A DNA stretch of 42,891 nucleotides from a virus, in the IMG/VR virus record IMGVR_UViG_3300045988_056259; one strand, given 5' to 3'. Positions 471 through 39,336 of the stretch are shown here, piece after piece (the stretch's first letter is position 1; the number at the start of each line of letters is the position of its first letter). The position numbers and the translations under genes were made by a program. Below the pieces are notes generated by a model that worked only from the letters and a program-made list of their open reading frames with translations, did no database searches and was not told the origin of the DNA.

Positions 471-1097
471 ATGCAAAGCGATTCACAAAAGCGCCTTGCA
501 AGGCGTGCCAGTATCAAGGAACTTTCCAACAAGGCCGAGGGCATCTATTACTACATCAAGCCGCAAAATATGCTGTTCAGGCTTATCAGTGCTGGCAATG
601 AACTTGCCAGCTCAATCAACGGCGCAGTGGCGTATTTCACGCATTTTGCACAGAACGGCAGCATGGATGATACTGCGAGCCGCGAGGTCATAGACCGCAT
701 CTATCGCAAGGTGGGCAGCATGATGTGCGATATTGACATCATCCACGCTGCAGGCGGTGCAGAAATCATGCCTGAACCGTATGAAAGCATAGATTTTTGT
801 TACATGATTGAGTTTCGCACCCTTCTGCGGGAAGCAGTTATCAATGGTCTGCCGGATGATTACAAAGGCGTGCAGCAGAACCCGACACAAATCCGGCTCA
901 TGAAGCCCGGCGTTGCATATCATGCCACGATTCCAGACGAGTATGATGACCCGTTTTTTGACCAGTTTGTCCGCAAAGAAGAGCAGCGAGACCGGAAAAT
1001 CGTATTCCGGTGCACAAAGTCAGAGCTTGACGCCATCAAGCGTTATGCACATATCATCGATGTAAAATACACTGAGGAGGAGATTCATCATGCCTGA
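471..1097 (+). CDS. Hypothetical early protein (208 aa), immediately upstream of the RecT-like gene.
   Basis: Long ORF, tightly packed, overlapping the next gene. No motif recognised. Confidence 0.7.
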   Translation: MQSDSQKRLARRASIKELSNKAEGIYYYIKPQNMLFRLISAGNELASSINGAVAYFTHFAQNGSMDDTASREVIDRIYRKVGSMMCDIDIIHAAGGAEIMPEPYESIDFCYMIEFRTLLREAVINGLPDDYKGVQQNPTQIRLMKPGVAYHATIPDEYDDPFFDQFVRKEEQRDRKIVFRCTKSELDAIKRYAHIIDVKYTEEEIHHA

Positions 1098-1782
1098 TAT
1101 CAAAATCGAAAAGACCCCTGTTGAGCAGCTTCAGAAGCCCGCAGCGCCCGCAGAAACCCTTACTCCTGTCAATCCCCCTGCCGCACCCGCACATCGCGCC
1201 CTCTCCTATGCTGAGAAAGTGCAGGGATTGACCGCAGACGAACGGATCTGGCAGCTGGCAAAGTCCAAGGCCGTTGCACTGTCCAACCTGCCTGACGGCT
1301 GGCTTCCCAAGACCTACGCCGGAAACGTTGGTGCTTGCGCCATCGCCTGCGACATGGCACAGCGCATGGGAACCACCGAACTGTTTGTGATGCAGAACCT
1401 TTACGTCGTCTACGGTCAGCCTACTTGGAGCGGCAAAAGCTGCAAGGCACTTATCGACAACAGCGGCCAGTTTGCAGGGCGCTCCCGCTATCGCATGGAA
1501 GGTCAAGAGGGCGCGGACACATGGGGCTGCCGCCTGATTGCCGTGGACAAGTTGACCGGCGAAAAGGTAGAAGGACCGAAGGTCACGGTGCAGATGGCAA
1601 AGGATGCAGGCTGGTGGAACAAAAACGGCAGCTACTGGCCTAAGATGACCGAGATGATGCTCAAGTACCGAGCAGCCGCCTATTTTGCCCGCGCTGAGTG
1701 CCCGGAAGTTCTGATGGGCGCAAACATCGACTACGAGGCCGGTGCTGGTGACAGCGCAGATGAGGAGCCGAACCATGCTTAA
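1090..1782 (+). CDS. recT: RecT-family single-strand annealing protein (putative).
   Basis: GAGGAGG RBS. Motifs QNLYVVYGQPTWSGKSCKALI and MAKDAGWWNKNGSYWPKMTEMMLKYRAAAYFAR resemble RecT. It lies adjacent to ssb. Confidence 0.55.
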   Translation: MPDIKIEKTPVEQLQKPAAPAETLTPVNPPAAPAHRALSYAEKVQGLTADERIWQLAKSKAVALSNLPDGWLPKTYAGNVGACAIACDMAQRMGTTELFVMQNLYVVYGQPTWSGKSCKALIDNSGQFAGRSRYRMEGQEGADTWGCRLIAVDKLTGEKVEGPKVTVQMAKDAGWWNKNGSYWPKMTEMMLKYRAAAYFARAECPEVLMGANIDYEAGAGDSADEEPNHA

Positions 1783-2248
1783 CGTTGTAGCAATCATGGG
1801 TCGCCTTGTGGCAGACCCGGAACTCCGCACCACCCAGCAGGGCACCAACGTGTGCACCTTCCGCATTGCTTGCGAGCGTAGCTATACCCCGAAAGGCCAG
1901 CAGCGTCAGGCTGATTTTGTGGATATCGTGGCATGGGGCAAGACCGCCGAATTTATCTGCAAGTTCTTCTAGATGGGCAGCATGATCGCCGTTGAGGGCA
2001 GCTTGCAGACCAGGAATTATCAGGACAAGCAGGGCAACAAGCGCACGGCGGTGGAGGTTCTTGCAAACAATATCAGCTTTGCAGGCGCTAAGGCGGCAGA
2101 TAAGCCCGCTGCGCGAGATTTCGACCAGCAGACGCAAAACTACACCCACGAAGCAAAATCCGCACAGAACGCCCCGCAGCCCGACTACACGCAGGGCAGC
2201 ATGGACGATTTCGCCGTGATAAACGACACCGACGACATGCCGTTCTGA
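1775..2248 (+). CDS. ssb: Single-stranded DNA-binding protein interrupted by one in-frame TAG (1970-1972).
   Basis: MLNVVAIMGRLVADPELR...DFVDIVAWGKTAEFICKFF[TAG]MGSMIAVEGSLQTRNYQDKQGNKRTAVEV...DDMPF. The OB fold is split across two same-frame track ORFs (1742..1972 and 1973..2248). The acidic DDMPF tail is typical of SSB. Confidence 0.85.
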
Positions 2249-2263
2249 AGGAGGAGATAAACA

Positions 2264-3124
2264 ATGAGCGTAAAAGGATATAAAGTTTTTAATTCTGACT
2301 GGACGTGTCGCGGCAAACAGTATTCTTGCCCGGGAACCTTTGAAGAATTTGTAAGTCCGTCTGTCTGCAATGTGGGTATGCACTTCTGCAAGAATGCCGC
2401 CGACTGTTTCCGTTACTATGATTTTGACCCGAATAACCACGTTGCTGAAGTGATCGCCCACGGCACGGTTGCAGAGGGCGGTAACAAGTGTGCAACGAAC
2501 AAGCTGGAAATCGTGCGAGAAATCCCTTGGGCTGAAGTCCTTGAGATCGTGAACACGGGAAAGGCTTGCACTGGACGTTGCAACAGCGGCGACTGGAACA
2601 GCGGCGACCGGAACAGCGGCGACCGGAACAGCGGCAACCGGAACAGCGGCAACCGGAACAGCGGCAACTGGAACAGCGGCGACTGGAACAGCGGCAACCG
2701 GAACAGCGGCAACCGGAACAGCGGCAACCGGAACAGCGGCAACTGTAACAGCGGCGACTGGAACACTACATCCTTTTCCAATGGCTGTTTCAATACGGTA
2801 TCGCCCAAAATCTATATGTTCAACAAGCCTACTGACTGGACGTTTGAGCAGTGGTTTAGCTGCCGTGCCCGGCGTTTGCTGAACGAAATTGACGATTGCC
2901 CGCTTGAGTACGTCTATCTGTCTGATATGACCGATGAGGAAAAGGCGGCGCACCCTGAAGCTGAAACGACTTGCGGTTATTTGAAGGAGCGCACCACAGC
3001 GGACAACGCCCGGAAGTGGTGGGCGGGGCTCAGTGCCGATGATCGAAACGTTATTTTCGGGTTGCCGAACTTCGACGCGGCGATTTTCAAAGAAATCACG
3101 GGGATTGACGTAATCAAAGACTGA
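2264..3124 (+). CDS. Pentapeptide-repeat protein: Cys-rich N-domain, 12 x NSG[DN][WRC], then a C-terminal domain.
   Basis: GGAGGAG RBS. 12 consecutive NSGxx pentapeptides are encoded by a 15-bp tandem repeat. Confidence 0.8.
   Translation: MSVKGYKVFNSDWTCRGKQYSCPGTFEEFVSPSVCNVGMHFCKNAADCFRYYDFDPNNHVAEVIAHGTVAEGGNKCATNKLEIVREIPWAEVLEIVNTGKACTGRCNSGDWNSGDRNSGDRNSGNRNSGNRNSGNWNSGDWNSGNRNSGNRNSGNRNSGNCNSGDWNTTSFSNGCFNTVSPKIYMFNKPTDWTFEQWFSCRARRLLNEIDDCPLEYVYLSDMTDEEKAAHPEAETTCGYLKERTTADNARKWWAGLSADDRNVIFGLPNFDAAIFKEITGIDVIKD
2582..2761 (+). repeat. 15-bp tandem repeat x12 (aacagcggcgactgg-like) encoding the pentapeptide repeats.
   Basis: Read directly from the sequence, in frame with CDS 2264..3124. 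Confidence 0.9.
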
Positions 3125-3253
3125 TACACTTCAAGAGCTGCGCTATCGGGCTATACGGGCGTGCAAGGAAGGAGGTGAGCCGAAACGAAAGAGATAGAAA
3201 AAAAGAGTCTAATTCTCTACAAGTCATGGAAAAAACCGCTGCGTCGACTATCC

Positions 3254-4093
3254 TTGGAACAAAAAGGCCGCATTTTTGAGGCGCTGCTCGATTTTCCTGA
3301 ACAGCCGGAATTTGAAGACCCGATGCTTGTGATGGCATGGGACTTTATGGCTGACGCTCTGGAAGAAAACGATAAAAAGTGGGATGAAATGCGAGAAAAG
3401 CGTTCCGCTGCAGGGCGAAAAGGTGCAGAAGCAACAAACGTCAAACGTCAGCAAAACGCTGCAAATCCGGCAAATGCCGATTTTGCCGGGCAAAAGCAGC
3501 AAAACGCTGCAAATCCGGCAAATGCCGATTTTGCCGGGCAAAAGCAGCAAAACGCGGCAAATACGGCAAATGCCGATTTTGCCGGGCAAAAGCAGCAAAA
3601 CGCGGCAAATACGGCTGTATCTGTTAATGTTAATGGTAATGATACTGTTAATGTTAATGGTAATGATACTGTTAATGTTAATGGTAATGATACTGTTAAT
3701 GCTATATCACCTAACGGTGGTGTATATAATAGCGCCGCCCCCGCCGCAGTTGACGTAGAACTTTCTAAAATCGTCCAGCATTATCAGCAGGCCGTTGGGG
3801 ACTTCCCACGCTCTGCACAGGACAAGCTGCAAAAGTGGCGGCAGGAGTATAGCACAGAGATGATCCTGCTGGCCATCGACAAAGCCGCAGAAGCTGGGAA
3901 GAGGTCATGGAACTACATAAACGGCATTCTTTCCGGGTGGCAGCGGGATGGCATTCAAACGCCGGGGGACGTTTTGGCAAATGAACAGAACAGGCAGAAC
4001 CGGCCGAACCGTAAGCAACCGGCTGAAACGGTTGACGACCAGCTTGCCCGGGTACTGGCAAAAATGGATCGAGAAAGAGGGTTTGAGACATGA
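3254..4093 (+). CDS. DnaD-domain replication initiation protein with an N-terminal LYKSW...LSLEQKGRIFEALL domain. The true 5' end is probably upstream of 3254.
   Basis: The C-terminus KRSWNYINGILSGWQRDGIQTPGDV is DnaD-like. The frame is open back to 3179 and encodes conserved-looking KKSLILYKSWKKPLRRLSLEQKG, but has no ATG/GTG/TTG there. Confidence 0.7.
   Translation: MEQKGRIFEALLDFPEQPEFEDPMLVMAWDFMADALEENDKKWDEMREKRSAAGRKGAEATNVKRQQNAANPANADFAGQKQQNAANPANADFAGQKQQNAANTANADFAGQKQQNAANTAVSVNVNGNDTVNVNGNDTVNVNGNDTVNAISPNGGVYNSAAPAAVDVELSKIVQHYQQAVGDFPRSAQDKLQKWRQEYSTEMILLAIDKAAEAGKRSWNYINGILSGWQRDGIQTPGDVLANEQNRQNRPNRKQPAETVDDQLARVLAKMDRERGFET
3449..3613 (+). repeat. 48-bp tandem repeat, about 3.4 copies (QQNAANPANADFAGQK units), inside the DnaD-like CDS.
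   Basis: Near-identical copies at 3449, 3497 and 3545, plus a partial fourth. Confidence 0.85.
3623..3700 (+). repeat. 24-bp AT-rich tandem repeat x3 plus a partial copy (VNVNGNDT units), inside the DnaD-like CDS.
   Basis: gttaatgttaatggtaatgatact is repeated exactly three times. Confidence 0.9.
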
Positions 4094-4994: not shown

Positions 4995-5206
4995 CGTGCA
5001 AGACCTGCAAAGACTGCCCCGCCCGGTATCCTGCCTGCCATGACCACTGTCCGCAGTTTACCGCTTGGCGCATAGAACACGCAAAAGAGACGGACTATAA
5101 CCGGCAAATGACCGTGTCAGGCAGGGTCTATCACTACGGCTACGAGGACAAGCACCGGGAGAAGGGCAAGAAAAAATATTTGGGCAAAAACGGAGGAGAC
5201 AAATGA
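4991..5206 (+). CDS. Small Cys-rich hypothetical protein (71 aa).
   Basis: ATGA overlap. Sequence CKTCKDCPARYPACHDHC. Confidence 0.55.
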   Translation: MTCKTCKDCPARYPACHDHCPQFTAWRIEHAKETDYNRQMTVSGRVYHYGYEDKHREKGKKKYLGKNGGDK

Positions 5207-6363
5207 AAACCGTACAGGAAATTATGGCTGAAAACGGTTCCTTAGCGAACATCGAGCGTTTTCAGACAATGCAGAAGTGGAATTACAAGCGCAAGGTTGC
5301 GCACGCACAGGAAATGGCAGAAGCGTTCTATTGCTGGGCTAAGGATCACGACAAGGGCGTTCATCTGTCAGTGGGCGGTCTGGATTCCATCACGCTGCAT
5401 TACTTTTTGGAGAGCATCGGGCTTCCCGTCACCTGTGTGTCCTGCTCATCGCTGGAGGGCAAGGGCGTGCAGCAGGTGCATAAGAAGATTGCAGCAGAGA
5501 TGGAATCCGAATACCAAAACTGGATGGGCGATGGTGAGGCTCCATCCTTCGTTTTCCTGAAGCCGCTGAAAAGCAAGGTGCAGGTCTTACAGGAGTTTGG
5601 ATGGCCGGTCATCAGCAAAGAAAAGGCGGGCAAGATCATGCTGTTGCAAAACCCGACAGAGCAAAACGCCACCGTGCGCCATGCAATCATTACCGGGGAG
5701 ACCGGAGAATATGGCGGATGGCAGAAAAAAAGCCGGATGAAGCTGCCGCAGAAGTGGCTTGACTTGTTTGGTGGCGCAGATGCAGAAGGTGCAGCGCTTG
5801 GATATCAGGCAGCGCCGTTCAAAGTGTCAGACCGGTGCTGCTACTACCTCAAGGAAAAGCCGTGTAACGACTGGGCAAGGGAGCATAACAGCGTTCCATA
5901 CATGGGGCTTATGGCAAGCGAGGGGGGGCGGCGCGAGAAAAGCCTGAAGATGCACGGCTGCAACTATTTCGGCAAGACCACCACACGCAGCGCACCCTTT
6001 GCCATATTTGACCGACAAGACGTCTTGCAGCTTGCGCTTGACCTTGACGTGCCCGTGCCTGCCGAATACGGCGAGATCGCAAAAGACAGAGACGGCAAGC
6101 TATACACCACAAAGGCACAGCGTACTGGCTGTACTATGTGCGGGTTTGGCATCCACATCGAGGGCAGACCACACCGGTTCGATGTTCTGCGCGAGACGAA
6201 CCCCAAAGAATGGGAGTTTTGGATGAAGCACGTCTGCCGGGATGAAAACGGAAATTGGTACGGCTGGGGGCGCGTTCTGGACTACATCGGCATCGGCTGG
6301 GAAGATGTGCCGGAACAGGCAGTGCAAATGCACATTGATGATCTGATGGAGGATGTGAAGTGA
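5203..6363 (+). CDS. PAPS-reductase/ATP-pyrophosphatase family protein, phage type.
   Basis: The N-terminal segment GVHLSVGGLDSITLHYF resembles the SGGKDS PP-loop. The size and Cys-rich C-terminus (GCTMCGFG) fit phage PAPS-reductase-like proteins. Confidence 0.55.
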   Translation: MKTVQEIMAENGSLANIERFQTMQKWNYKRKVAHAQEMAEAFYCWAKDHDKGVHLSVGGLDSITLHYFLESIGLPVTCVSCSSLEGKGVQQVHKKIAAEMESEYQNWMGDGEAPSFVFLKPLKSKVQVLQEFGWPVISKEKAGKIMLLQNPTEQNATVRHAIITGETGEYGGWQKKSRMKLPQKWLDLFGGADAEGAALGYQAAPFKVSDRCCYYLKEKPCNDWAREHNSVPYMGLMASEGGRREKSLKMHGCNYFGKTTTRSAPFAIFDRQDVLQLALDLDVPVPAEYGEIAKDRDGKLYTTKAQRTGCTMCGFGIHIEGRPHRFDVLRETNPKEWEFWMKHVCRDENGNWYGWGRVLDYIGIGWEDVPEQAVQMHIDDLMEDVK

Positions 6364-16397: not shown

Positions 16398-16473
16398 GCC
16401 GTTTTCGCACAACTGGCAGTGCTCCCGGCTCATAACCGGGGAGTTGCAGGTTCGACCCCTGCAAGCGGCACCA
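16398..16473 (+). tRNA. Second tRNA with a CAU anticodon (Met or Ile2), with encoded CCA. It sits between head genes.
   Basis: gccgttt-tc-gcac aactggca gtgc-t-cccgg CTCATAA ccggg-gagtt-gcagg ttcgacc cctgc-aagcggc-a-cca. Confidence 0.85.
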
Positions 16474-35911: not shown

Positions 35912-35959
35912 TGATTTGTAATCAGTGGGTTGCAGGTTCAACTCCTGTCACCAGCTCCA
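35912..35959 (+). other. Probable attP core: the 3' portion of a tRNA-Thr(UGU)-like gene, from the anticodon loop to CCA.
   Basis: tga-TTTGTAA-tcagt-gggtt-gcagg ttcaact cctgt-caccagc-t-cca. There is no matching 5' acceptor or D arm upstream. It lies adjacent to the integrase gene. Confidence 0.6.
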
Positions 35960-39222: not shown

Positions 39223-39336
39223 ATGAACGAAACAGACCGGCAAGGCTACATCGACGCTATTATCAAGCTTCTGGAACGCGCAGACCTGCGGGCGCTGCGC
39301 CTGATCTGGATCCACGCAAAAGGCCTTGTAAAATAG
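39223..39336 (+). CDS. Small ORF (37 aa), one of only two candidate ORFs ending in TAG.
   Basis: TAGGAGGAAACA precedes ATG 39223. Sequence MNETDRQGYIDAIIKLLERADLRALRLIWIHAKGLVK. Confidence 0.35.
   Translation: MNETDRQGYIDAIIKLLERADLRALRLIWIHAKGLVK

Follow-up and report, generated by a model that had tools for sequence, protein, structure and literature searches.

The whole 42,891-nucleotide stretch of the virus record IMGVR_UViG_3300045988_056259, referred to here as the window, contains a gene for a single-stranded DNA-binding protein (SSB) that is interrupted by one amber codon. The gene occupies positions 1775–2248. The first-pass annotation had described it as two halves in the same frame, 1775–1969 and 1973–2248, with a single in-frame TAG, and this was confirmed by translating 1775–2251. 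The translation starts with MLNV and runs through AEFICKFF to the sole in-frame TAG (1970–1972); it resumes with MGSMIAVEG at the directly following ATG (1973–1975) and ends with DTDDMPF before the TGA (2246–2248). The N-terminal fragment (1775–1972, + strand) is 65 codons plus the TAG in size; it contains strands β1–β3 and the helix of the oligonucleotide/oligosaccharide-binding (OB) fold. The C-terminal part (1973–2248, + strand) is 91 codons plus the TGA in size; it contains the β4–β5 hairpin, a disordered linker and the acidic tip DDMPF, and the D-D-x-P-F ending that follows the linker in SSBs is therefore present. At the amber codon (1970–1972, + strand), a T at 1970 takes the place of the C of CAG (Gln66), a C that is present in all relatives. 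The C-to-T change also generates CTAG and a TCTAGA site.

Both fragments match the Pfam SSB profile (PF00436). The N-terminal fragment covers profile positions 1–64 of 104 (E = 4e-17) and the C-terminal fragment covers positions 69–103 of 104. When joined, as in the protein P0130, they match positions 1–103 of 104 with a score of 107.6 bits (E = 4e-31). Residues 1–106 of the repaired protein align with Bacillus subtilis SsbA (PDB 6bhw; E = 8e-25), and the repaired SSB also matches PHROG 44, ‘single strand DNA binding protein’. In all relatives examined the frame of the PF00436 protein is uninterrupted, whereas in the window it is not.

The position of the break was analyzed on an AlphaFold model of the intact relative P0001, which is of moderate confidence (mean predicted local distance difference test score (pLDDT) 55; 57–84 over the OB region and <50 for residues 97–157). 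The model contains strands at residues 4–11, 16–19, 25–36 and 48–54, followed by one helix (residues 55–64) and strand β4 (residues 70–83). Residue 66 is located in the loop 65–69 between the helix and strand β4. Because residue 66 precedes β4, the N-terminal fragment lacks the β4–β5 hairpin.

Thousands of SSB homologues exist, and uninterrupted SSBs of 157 aa abound among the relatives. The best 120 homologues, which are 156–162 aa in length and uninterrupted, were compared with the window. Position 66 is Q in ∼88% of these best 120 homologues and R, K, H, S or L in the rest; position 67 is K, R or Q. The first-pass annotation had placed the TAG at a position normally taken by K, R or Q. At the DNA level, a degenerate pattern search recovered 43 relatives from IMG/VR, all with CAG at codon 66 (28 with CAG-AAG and 15 with CAG-AGG), and CAG is also found throughout the loci L001–L010 and L096–L102. 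The first-pass annotation had proposed a look at this codon in homologues, taking CAG in close relatives as evidence against recoding, and CAG is what the close relatives carry. The gene of P0001, initially the closest relative found, is identical to that of the window over 477 nt except for C196T (CAG to TAG) and G200T (AGG to ATG).

The two differences turned out to be separable. The protein with Gln66 and Met67 is present in the public collection, where an exact-sequence look-up returned both the exact protein (P0130) and its variants (P0133, P0135, P0136 and P0138). The corresponding CAG-ATG allele was found in seven different samples or runs (L096–L102). Three of these loci (L100–L102) differ from the SSB gene of the window at position 196 alone, and two of the three, L101 and L102, show one mismatch to the window over 1,607 and 1,466 nt, respectively, which is the C/T difference at 1970. 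Since the CAG-ATG allele occurs in other samples, the ATG must be older than the stop; and since L100–L102 differ only at this base, the allele of the window is one C-to-T transition away from the allele of other samples. The Met67 ATG (1973–1975, + strand) is therefore a pre-existing R67M polymorphism (AGG to ATG) and not a compensatory start codon. We had also considered one clustered double mutation, in which a stop and a start 4 nt apart arose as a multi-nucleotide event or as a compensatory restart; this was dropped, as CAG-ATG circulates on its own.

The TAG is very likely a recent, private loss-of-function allele that arose by a single C-to-T nonsense mutation (CAG to TAG) in the SSB gene, with no alteration of the genetic code. 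A nonsense mutation was one of three explanations put forward in the first-pass annotation, and the one-base difference from the CAG-ATG allele of other samples supports it. Two apparent parallels were rejected. The loci L014 and L015, with their 65-aa products, looked like further TAG carriers; both are cut by contig ends, and L015 continues with AA rather than TA. The ‘hypothetical protein (x2)’ entries of the Faecalibacterium phages Pioen and Roos suggested a split SSB; in both, there is one intact coding sequence, and its edge runs into the adjacent gene.

The TAG allele is private in the literal sense, being confined to the assemblies of one sample or very few. The 65-aa N-terminal fragment is recorded only in ERR688604/ERZ909693, in FENG15-1 SAMEA3136683 and in ERZ1742751, plus two end-cut contigs. 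The Logan contig of ERR688604 also bears the TAG allele, and JGI/IMG gives 58-aa and 91-aa products on the contig of the window itself. Two of the TAG-allele assemblies in ENA share one run number, and the origin of ERZ1742751 is unstated. No exact match to the TAG allele was found in IMG/VR or among the JGI metagenome contigs.

With so narrow a distribution, the T at 1970 might be a sequencing or consensus error in a population that truly carries CAG; we consider this very unlikely. A single base is concerned, the assemblies may all stem from one read set, one of them has a k-mer coverage of only ∼7x, and the T gives rise to a CTAG although CTAG is avoided 16-fold in this genome. However, the T is common to at least four or five assembly pipelines, with MEGAHIT, SPAdes-type scaffolds, Logan and JGI among them, and is thus no assembler artefact. 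Moreover, the Logan contig crosses the site unbroken, and no contig of ERR688604 with CAG is among those returned for the intact allele.

The suggestion that TAG is read as sense, through amber suppression or a partial code-15-like reassignment, was examined with stop-codon statistics. A naive longest-ORF (open reading frame) gene call gave nine TAG stops, which were antisense artefacts in a genome of 53% guanine plus cytosine, and this call was replaced. A self-trained caller based on codon usage gave 65 ORFs, with 34 ending in TAA, 29 in TGA and two in TAG, namely the N-terminal fragment of the SSB and a 37-aa ORF at 39223–39336. The count agrees with the earlier statement that TAG is nearly unused as a terminator, apart from two doubtful ORFs at 8280–8498 and 39223–39336; the TAG-terminated ORF at 8280–8498 is also called by public pipelines. 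On both strands, 501 TAGs lie in frame between TAA or TGA stops, and the TAG at 1970 is the sole one to be flanked by coding potential upstream as well as downstream, with scores of 20.6 and 25.8; for the next best TAG the lower of the two scores is 2.6. In 496 kb of relatives, none of the in-frame TAGs is flanked in this way. With the same ad hoc caller, the coding density is 0.8175 under code 11 and 0.8032 under code 15, and the SSB is the only gene that becomes merged. The comparison of the two codes that the first-pass annotation had called for therefore gives no gain and does not bear recoding out. In recoded clades, 26–71% of genes contain in-frame stops, and a gain in coding density of >10% is the criterion (bioRxiv 10.1101/2021.08.26.457843).

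The search for a suppressor tRNA was likewise negative: ARAGORN and Rfam detected four tRNAs in the window, none of which has a CUA anticodon. One of the four (7913–7989, + strand; Rfam score 50.9 bits) has an unusual 8-nt anticodon loop, CUAUUGAA. ARAGORN gave its anticodon as ‘attg’, and Infernal read UUG (Gln) and placed an additional A behind U33. The stems of this tRNA contain mismatches, A:A in the anticodon stem and U:U in the T stem. The same tRNA with an identical loop is found in eight related loci, including phages with an intact SSB, with U2-A71 or U2-G71 in the acceptor stem. It is no CUA suppressor; it may act as a decoder of the frameshift type, represent an odd tRNA-Gln or be decaying. 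The three further tRNAs, at 8591–8745 and 16398–16473 (+ strand), comprise one tRNA-Trp(CCA) and two tRNAs with the anticodon CAU, which could be for Met, initiator or, once modified, Ile2. A more distant relative, L016, shares the pair of CAU and Trp tRNAs.

Rare use of TAG as a terminator is shared by phages that use the standard code. In related phages, all with an intact SSB, nine of the 709 genes (1.3%) end in TAG; in 80 loci of Faecalibacterium and allied genomes, the number is 41 of 1,105 (3.7%). At these rates, the probability of finding no TAG stop in 63 genes is 0.45 and 0.09, respectively. Once the composition of the lineage is counted, the terminator bias is not beyond chance. The first-pass annotation had noted that such a bias would be uninformative if the host itself almost never used TAG, and the 3.7% in loci of the Faecalibacterium lineage is of this kind.

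TAG is also rare where it cannot terminate a gene. Within genes, the two non-coding frames contain 53 and 24 TAGs, compared to 158 and 111 expected, a depletion of 3- to 4.6-fold. CTAG is 16-fold under-represented in the window, with 10 observed and 164 expected. GGCC and TCGA are also depleted, ∼2-fold over the whole window. The depletion of CTAG, TAG, GGCC and TCGA may come from restriction avoidance or from a repair-driven bias common to Faecalibacterium. The rarity of TAG is k-mer avoidance and not a translational signal. Because it is common to standard-code relatives and is seen out of frame, the depletion of TAG terminators does not discriminate in favor of recoding. One of the ten CTAGs was created by the amber mutation itself, as would be expected if the mutation is recent.

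The identity of the mutated codon is equally ordinary. With 431 CAG codons in the window, CAG to TAG is the most frequent nonsense route and the main C-to-T path to a stop; of the nonsense substitutions that are possible, 53% produce TAG. A TAG in the place of Gln is therefore the usual appearance of a nonsense mutation in this genome. One of the two TAG-ending ORFs also argues for TAG as a stop. The 37-aa ORF MNETDRQGYIDAIIKLLERADLRALRLIWIHAKGLVK (39223–39336, + strand) lies between a DUF4428/SHOCT gene and the gene of a CI-like repressor; it has the same length and the same TAG end in 18 related loci, and it is called in relatives by public pipelines. It is probably a real small gene of the lysogeny-switch region, and if so, TAG works as a terminator in this phage group.

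Taken together, these results make it extremely unlikely that the TAG is read as Gln, by an amber-suppressor tRNA or under a partial code 15, so that a full-length SSB is made. What speaks for such decoding is that Gln is the ancestral residue at this position, that TAG is nearly unused as a terminator, and that near-cognate readthrough by tRNA-Gln(CUG) would give exactly the P0130 protein at a low level. Furthermore, recoding has been proposed to start from an ancestral depletion of TAG, and Oscillospiraceae are known to contain TAG-recoded prophages (10.1101/2021.08.26.457843). However, the window has one in-frame TAG in ∼64 genes, against the 26–71% of genes in recoded clades. There is no gain in density, no CUA tRNA in the window and no TAG at this codon in any relative, and related phages and loci of the Faecalibacterium lineage do end some genes in TAG, the ORF at 39223–39336 always. 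No nonsense path is more common than CAG to TAG. Accordingly, the proposal of amber suppression or partial code 15 does not stand. Nor does the argument that recoding would be unusual in a temperate phage, which is outdated: TAG-recoded prophages have been described, one of them integrated beside tRNA-Thr in an Oscillospiraceae genome (bioRxiv 10.1101/2021.08.26.457843).

The remaining suggestion of the first-pass annotation was that the SSB is split and is expressed by termination and reinitiation at TAGATG. That two polypeptides are made in this way and reassemble into a working SSB appears very unlikely. Stop and start do adjoin at 1970–1975, both halves have kept full coding potential, and the break lies in the surface loop 65–69 of the model, a kind of loop that sometimes tolerates splitting. 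On the other hand, the ATG is older than the stop and so gives no sign of selection for a restart; inspection of the sequence found no Shine-Dalgarno ahead of the ATG at 1973, and the arrangement occurs in no relative. The N-terminal fragment lacks two of the five OB-fold strands, and the model that supports the loop position is itself of moderate confidence only. No split SSB of the bacterial type is known. The juxtaposition of stop and start is coincidental, since the ATG comes from the older CAG-ATG allele of other samples. Reinitiation could physically take place at the ATG, but not as a feature that has evolved. Candidate restarts in the C-terminal part are ATG 1973, ATG 1982 and TTG 2003, the last preceded by GAGGG; public gene calls start the C-terminal product at this TTG, which gives 81 aa.

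Loss of the SSB is not limited to the amber allele. In related phages, the SSB gene has a second null allele, an out-of-frame deletion of 253 nt. The deletion joins positions 1949 and 2203 of the window and leaves a product of 67 aa. It was found in four assemblies (L147–L150), one of them with a contig of 41 kb; positions 3001–3204 of L147 correspond to 1950–2202 of the window. The two independent null alleles indicate that the phage can do without its SSB, at least for a short time, and presumably the SSB of the host takes over.

Based on these data, we propose the following course of events. The ancestor would have carried CAG-ATG (Gln66 and Met67); one C-to-T transition would have turned Gln66 into the amber codon, and the ATG after the stop would be inherited rather than selected. 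TAG would terminate translation, so that the full-length SSB would be lost or nearly so, apart from background near-cognate readthrough, in which trace insertion of Gln would recreate the P0130 protein. The 65-aa fragment would be made but should be unable to close the OB barrel and is expected to lack function. To some extent, restarts at ATG 1973, ATG 1982 or TTG 2003 may give a C-terminal fragment with the acidic tip. The loss would be tolerated, as the phage SSB appears dispensable in the clade, with the host SSB probably compensating.

Several points weigh against this interpretation. The stop statistics come from an ad hoc caller and not from a validated tool. The coverage of ∼7x noted above applies to one assembly that carries the TAG allele, and the assemblies ERR688604, SAMEA3136683 and ERZ1742751 may represent one biological sample or several. 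The SSB is strongly conserved across thousands of relatives; its loss is therefore probably not favored in the long term, and probably mildly deleterious rather than neutral.

The loss may in principle have been selected. Phage SSBs are reported to trigger the defence systems Retron-Eco8, AbpAB and Hna, and mutations in SSB to evade Septu (10.1101/2022.08.27.505566, PMC10732053, PMC12184496). The amber could thus be a null allele that lets the phage escape an SSB-activated anti-phage system of the local host strain, a scenario we regard as quite unlikely. Besides the reported triggers, it can draw on the two independent null alleles in the clade, the amber and the 253-nt deletion found in four assemblies. 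However, neutral or slightly deleterious drift of a prophage fits the data equally well, the amber allele is limited to one sample or very few, and no defence system was identified, although the analysis included no host genome from the sample. In an extended version, which strikes us as rather improbable, the amber was selected in this gut because it removes the SSB and keeps a trace of full-length protein (by Gln readthrough) or a restarted C-terminal fragment, and so evades an SSB-sensing defence of Faecalibacterium; in a rarer variant, the CUA tRNA of a co-resident Topaz-type prophage suppresses the amber in trans. We retain a private nonsense allele as the preferred explanation.

The phage itself does not look inert. 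The window begins and ends with the same 95 bases, and because of this terminal direct overlap, the window is taken as a circular assembly of ∼42.8 kb. It is 100% identical to an ENA contig of run ERR688604 (PRJEB7774, human gut) and, over the part covered, to the Logan contig of that run; it is nearly identical to a further contig, which has the label FENG15-1 SAMEA3136683. The ENA contig (L011, 1–126) opens with 78 nt of host sequence that complete a tRNA-Thr(UGU) gene, which corresponds to the integrated form. Different from that contig, the window carries only the 3′ part of tRNA-Thr(UGU) (∼35912–35959), the attachment core, and both the window and another assembly cross the phage attachment site attP. 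The assemblies therefore hold the junction of the integrated prophage as well as the circular attP form, so the phage is not inert. The window also encodes an integrase and a CI-like repressor. In species-representative genomes, relatives of the SSB are overwhelmingly from Faecalibacterium, with Gemmiger and Subdoligranulum further out. The window is a temperate siphovirus of Faecalibacterium that integrates into the tRNA-Thr(UGU) gene. The phage collection yielded no close cultured relative: a single weak and partial match was obtained at the DNA level, and the best match among proteins, from unannotated faecal contigs, was 65% identical.

The SSB gene sits in a tightly packed early operon (RecT-SSB-replication) on the plus strand. 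The upstream gene (1090–1782, + strand) encodes a RecT-like protein that anneals single-stranded DNA (phrog_561, E = 2e-42), and its end overlaps the start of the SSB gene by 8 nt. The downstream gene (2264–3124, + strand) encodes a protein with DUF7666 and pentapeptide repeats by Pfam; it has its own GGAGGAG ribosome-binding site, so its initiation is independent of SSB translation. A DnaD-like replication initiator is also encoded downstream of the SSB. No promoter-like or terminator-like site was found within 1000–3300. The length of the DUF7666/pentapeptide gene varies from 162 to 321 aa in public calls among near-identical phages, and the gene differs even among assemblies of one run, as in a repeat-driven variable or assembly-ambiguous region. 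Elsewhere in the early region, 5203–6363 (+ strand) encodes a 386-aa protein that matches phrog_424 (E = 2e-27), a PHROG family with the annotation phosphoadenosine phosphosulfate reductase.

The locus may be of use as a negative control in scans for recoding, as a lone TAG at a Gln position together with an unused TAG terminator mimics an incipient code 15. The causes are ordinary ones here, namely the CAG-rich and TAG/CTAG-avoiding composition of the Faecalibacterium lineage and one private C-to-T transition. It also indicates that a phage-encoded SSB can be lost in a common group of gut phages, which is mildly relevant given that phage SSBs are reported triggers of defence.

Compared to known systems, the repaired protein resembles the homotetrameric SSBs of the Bacillus subtilis SsbA type, in that a single OB fold is followed by a disordered linker and the acidic tip DDMPF at the C terminus; different from these, the ORF of the window is cut by the amber after residue 65, and the intact form is found in relatives only. 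The code-15 gut phages (crAss-like, Garnet and Topaz; bioRxiv 10.1101/2021.08.26.457843; PMC9523058) share with the window the gut habitat, the rare TAG terminator and a TAG at a Gln position, and the Topaz prophages are also integrated beside tRNA-Thr in Oscillospiraceae. However, at least a quarter of their genes contain in-frame TAGs, whereas the window has one; it encodes no suppressor tRNA and gains no coding density, and its TAG is not common to its relatives. The likeness to termination-reinitiation coupling is the start codon directly after the stop; here, this arrangement is accidental, lies inside one gene, is not conserved and has no Shine-Dalgarno. The closest counterparts are the amber alleles and pseudogenes of accessory genes in temperate phages, with which the SSB allele shares a CAG-to-TAG transition private to one population, a function that the host can supply and a deletion null of the same gene in relatives. 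Nothing of substance sets the present allele apart from these; its sole oddity is the inherited ATG after the stop.

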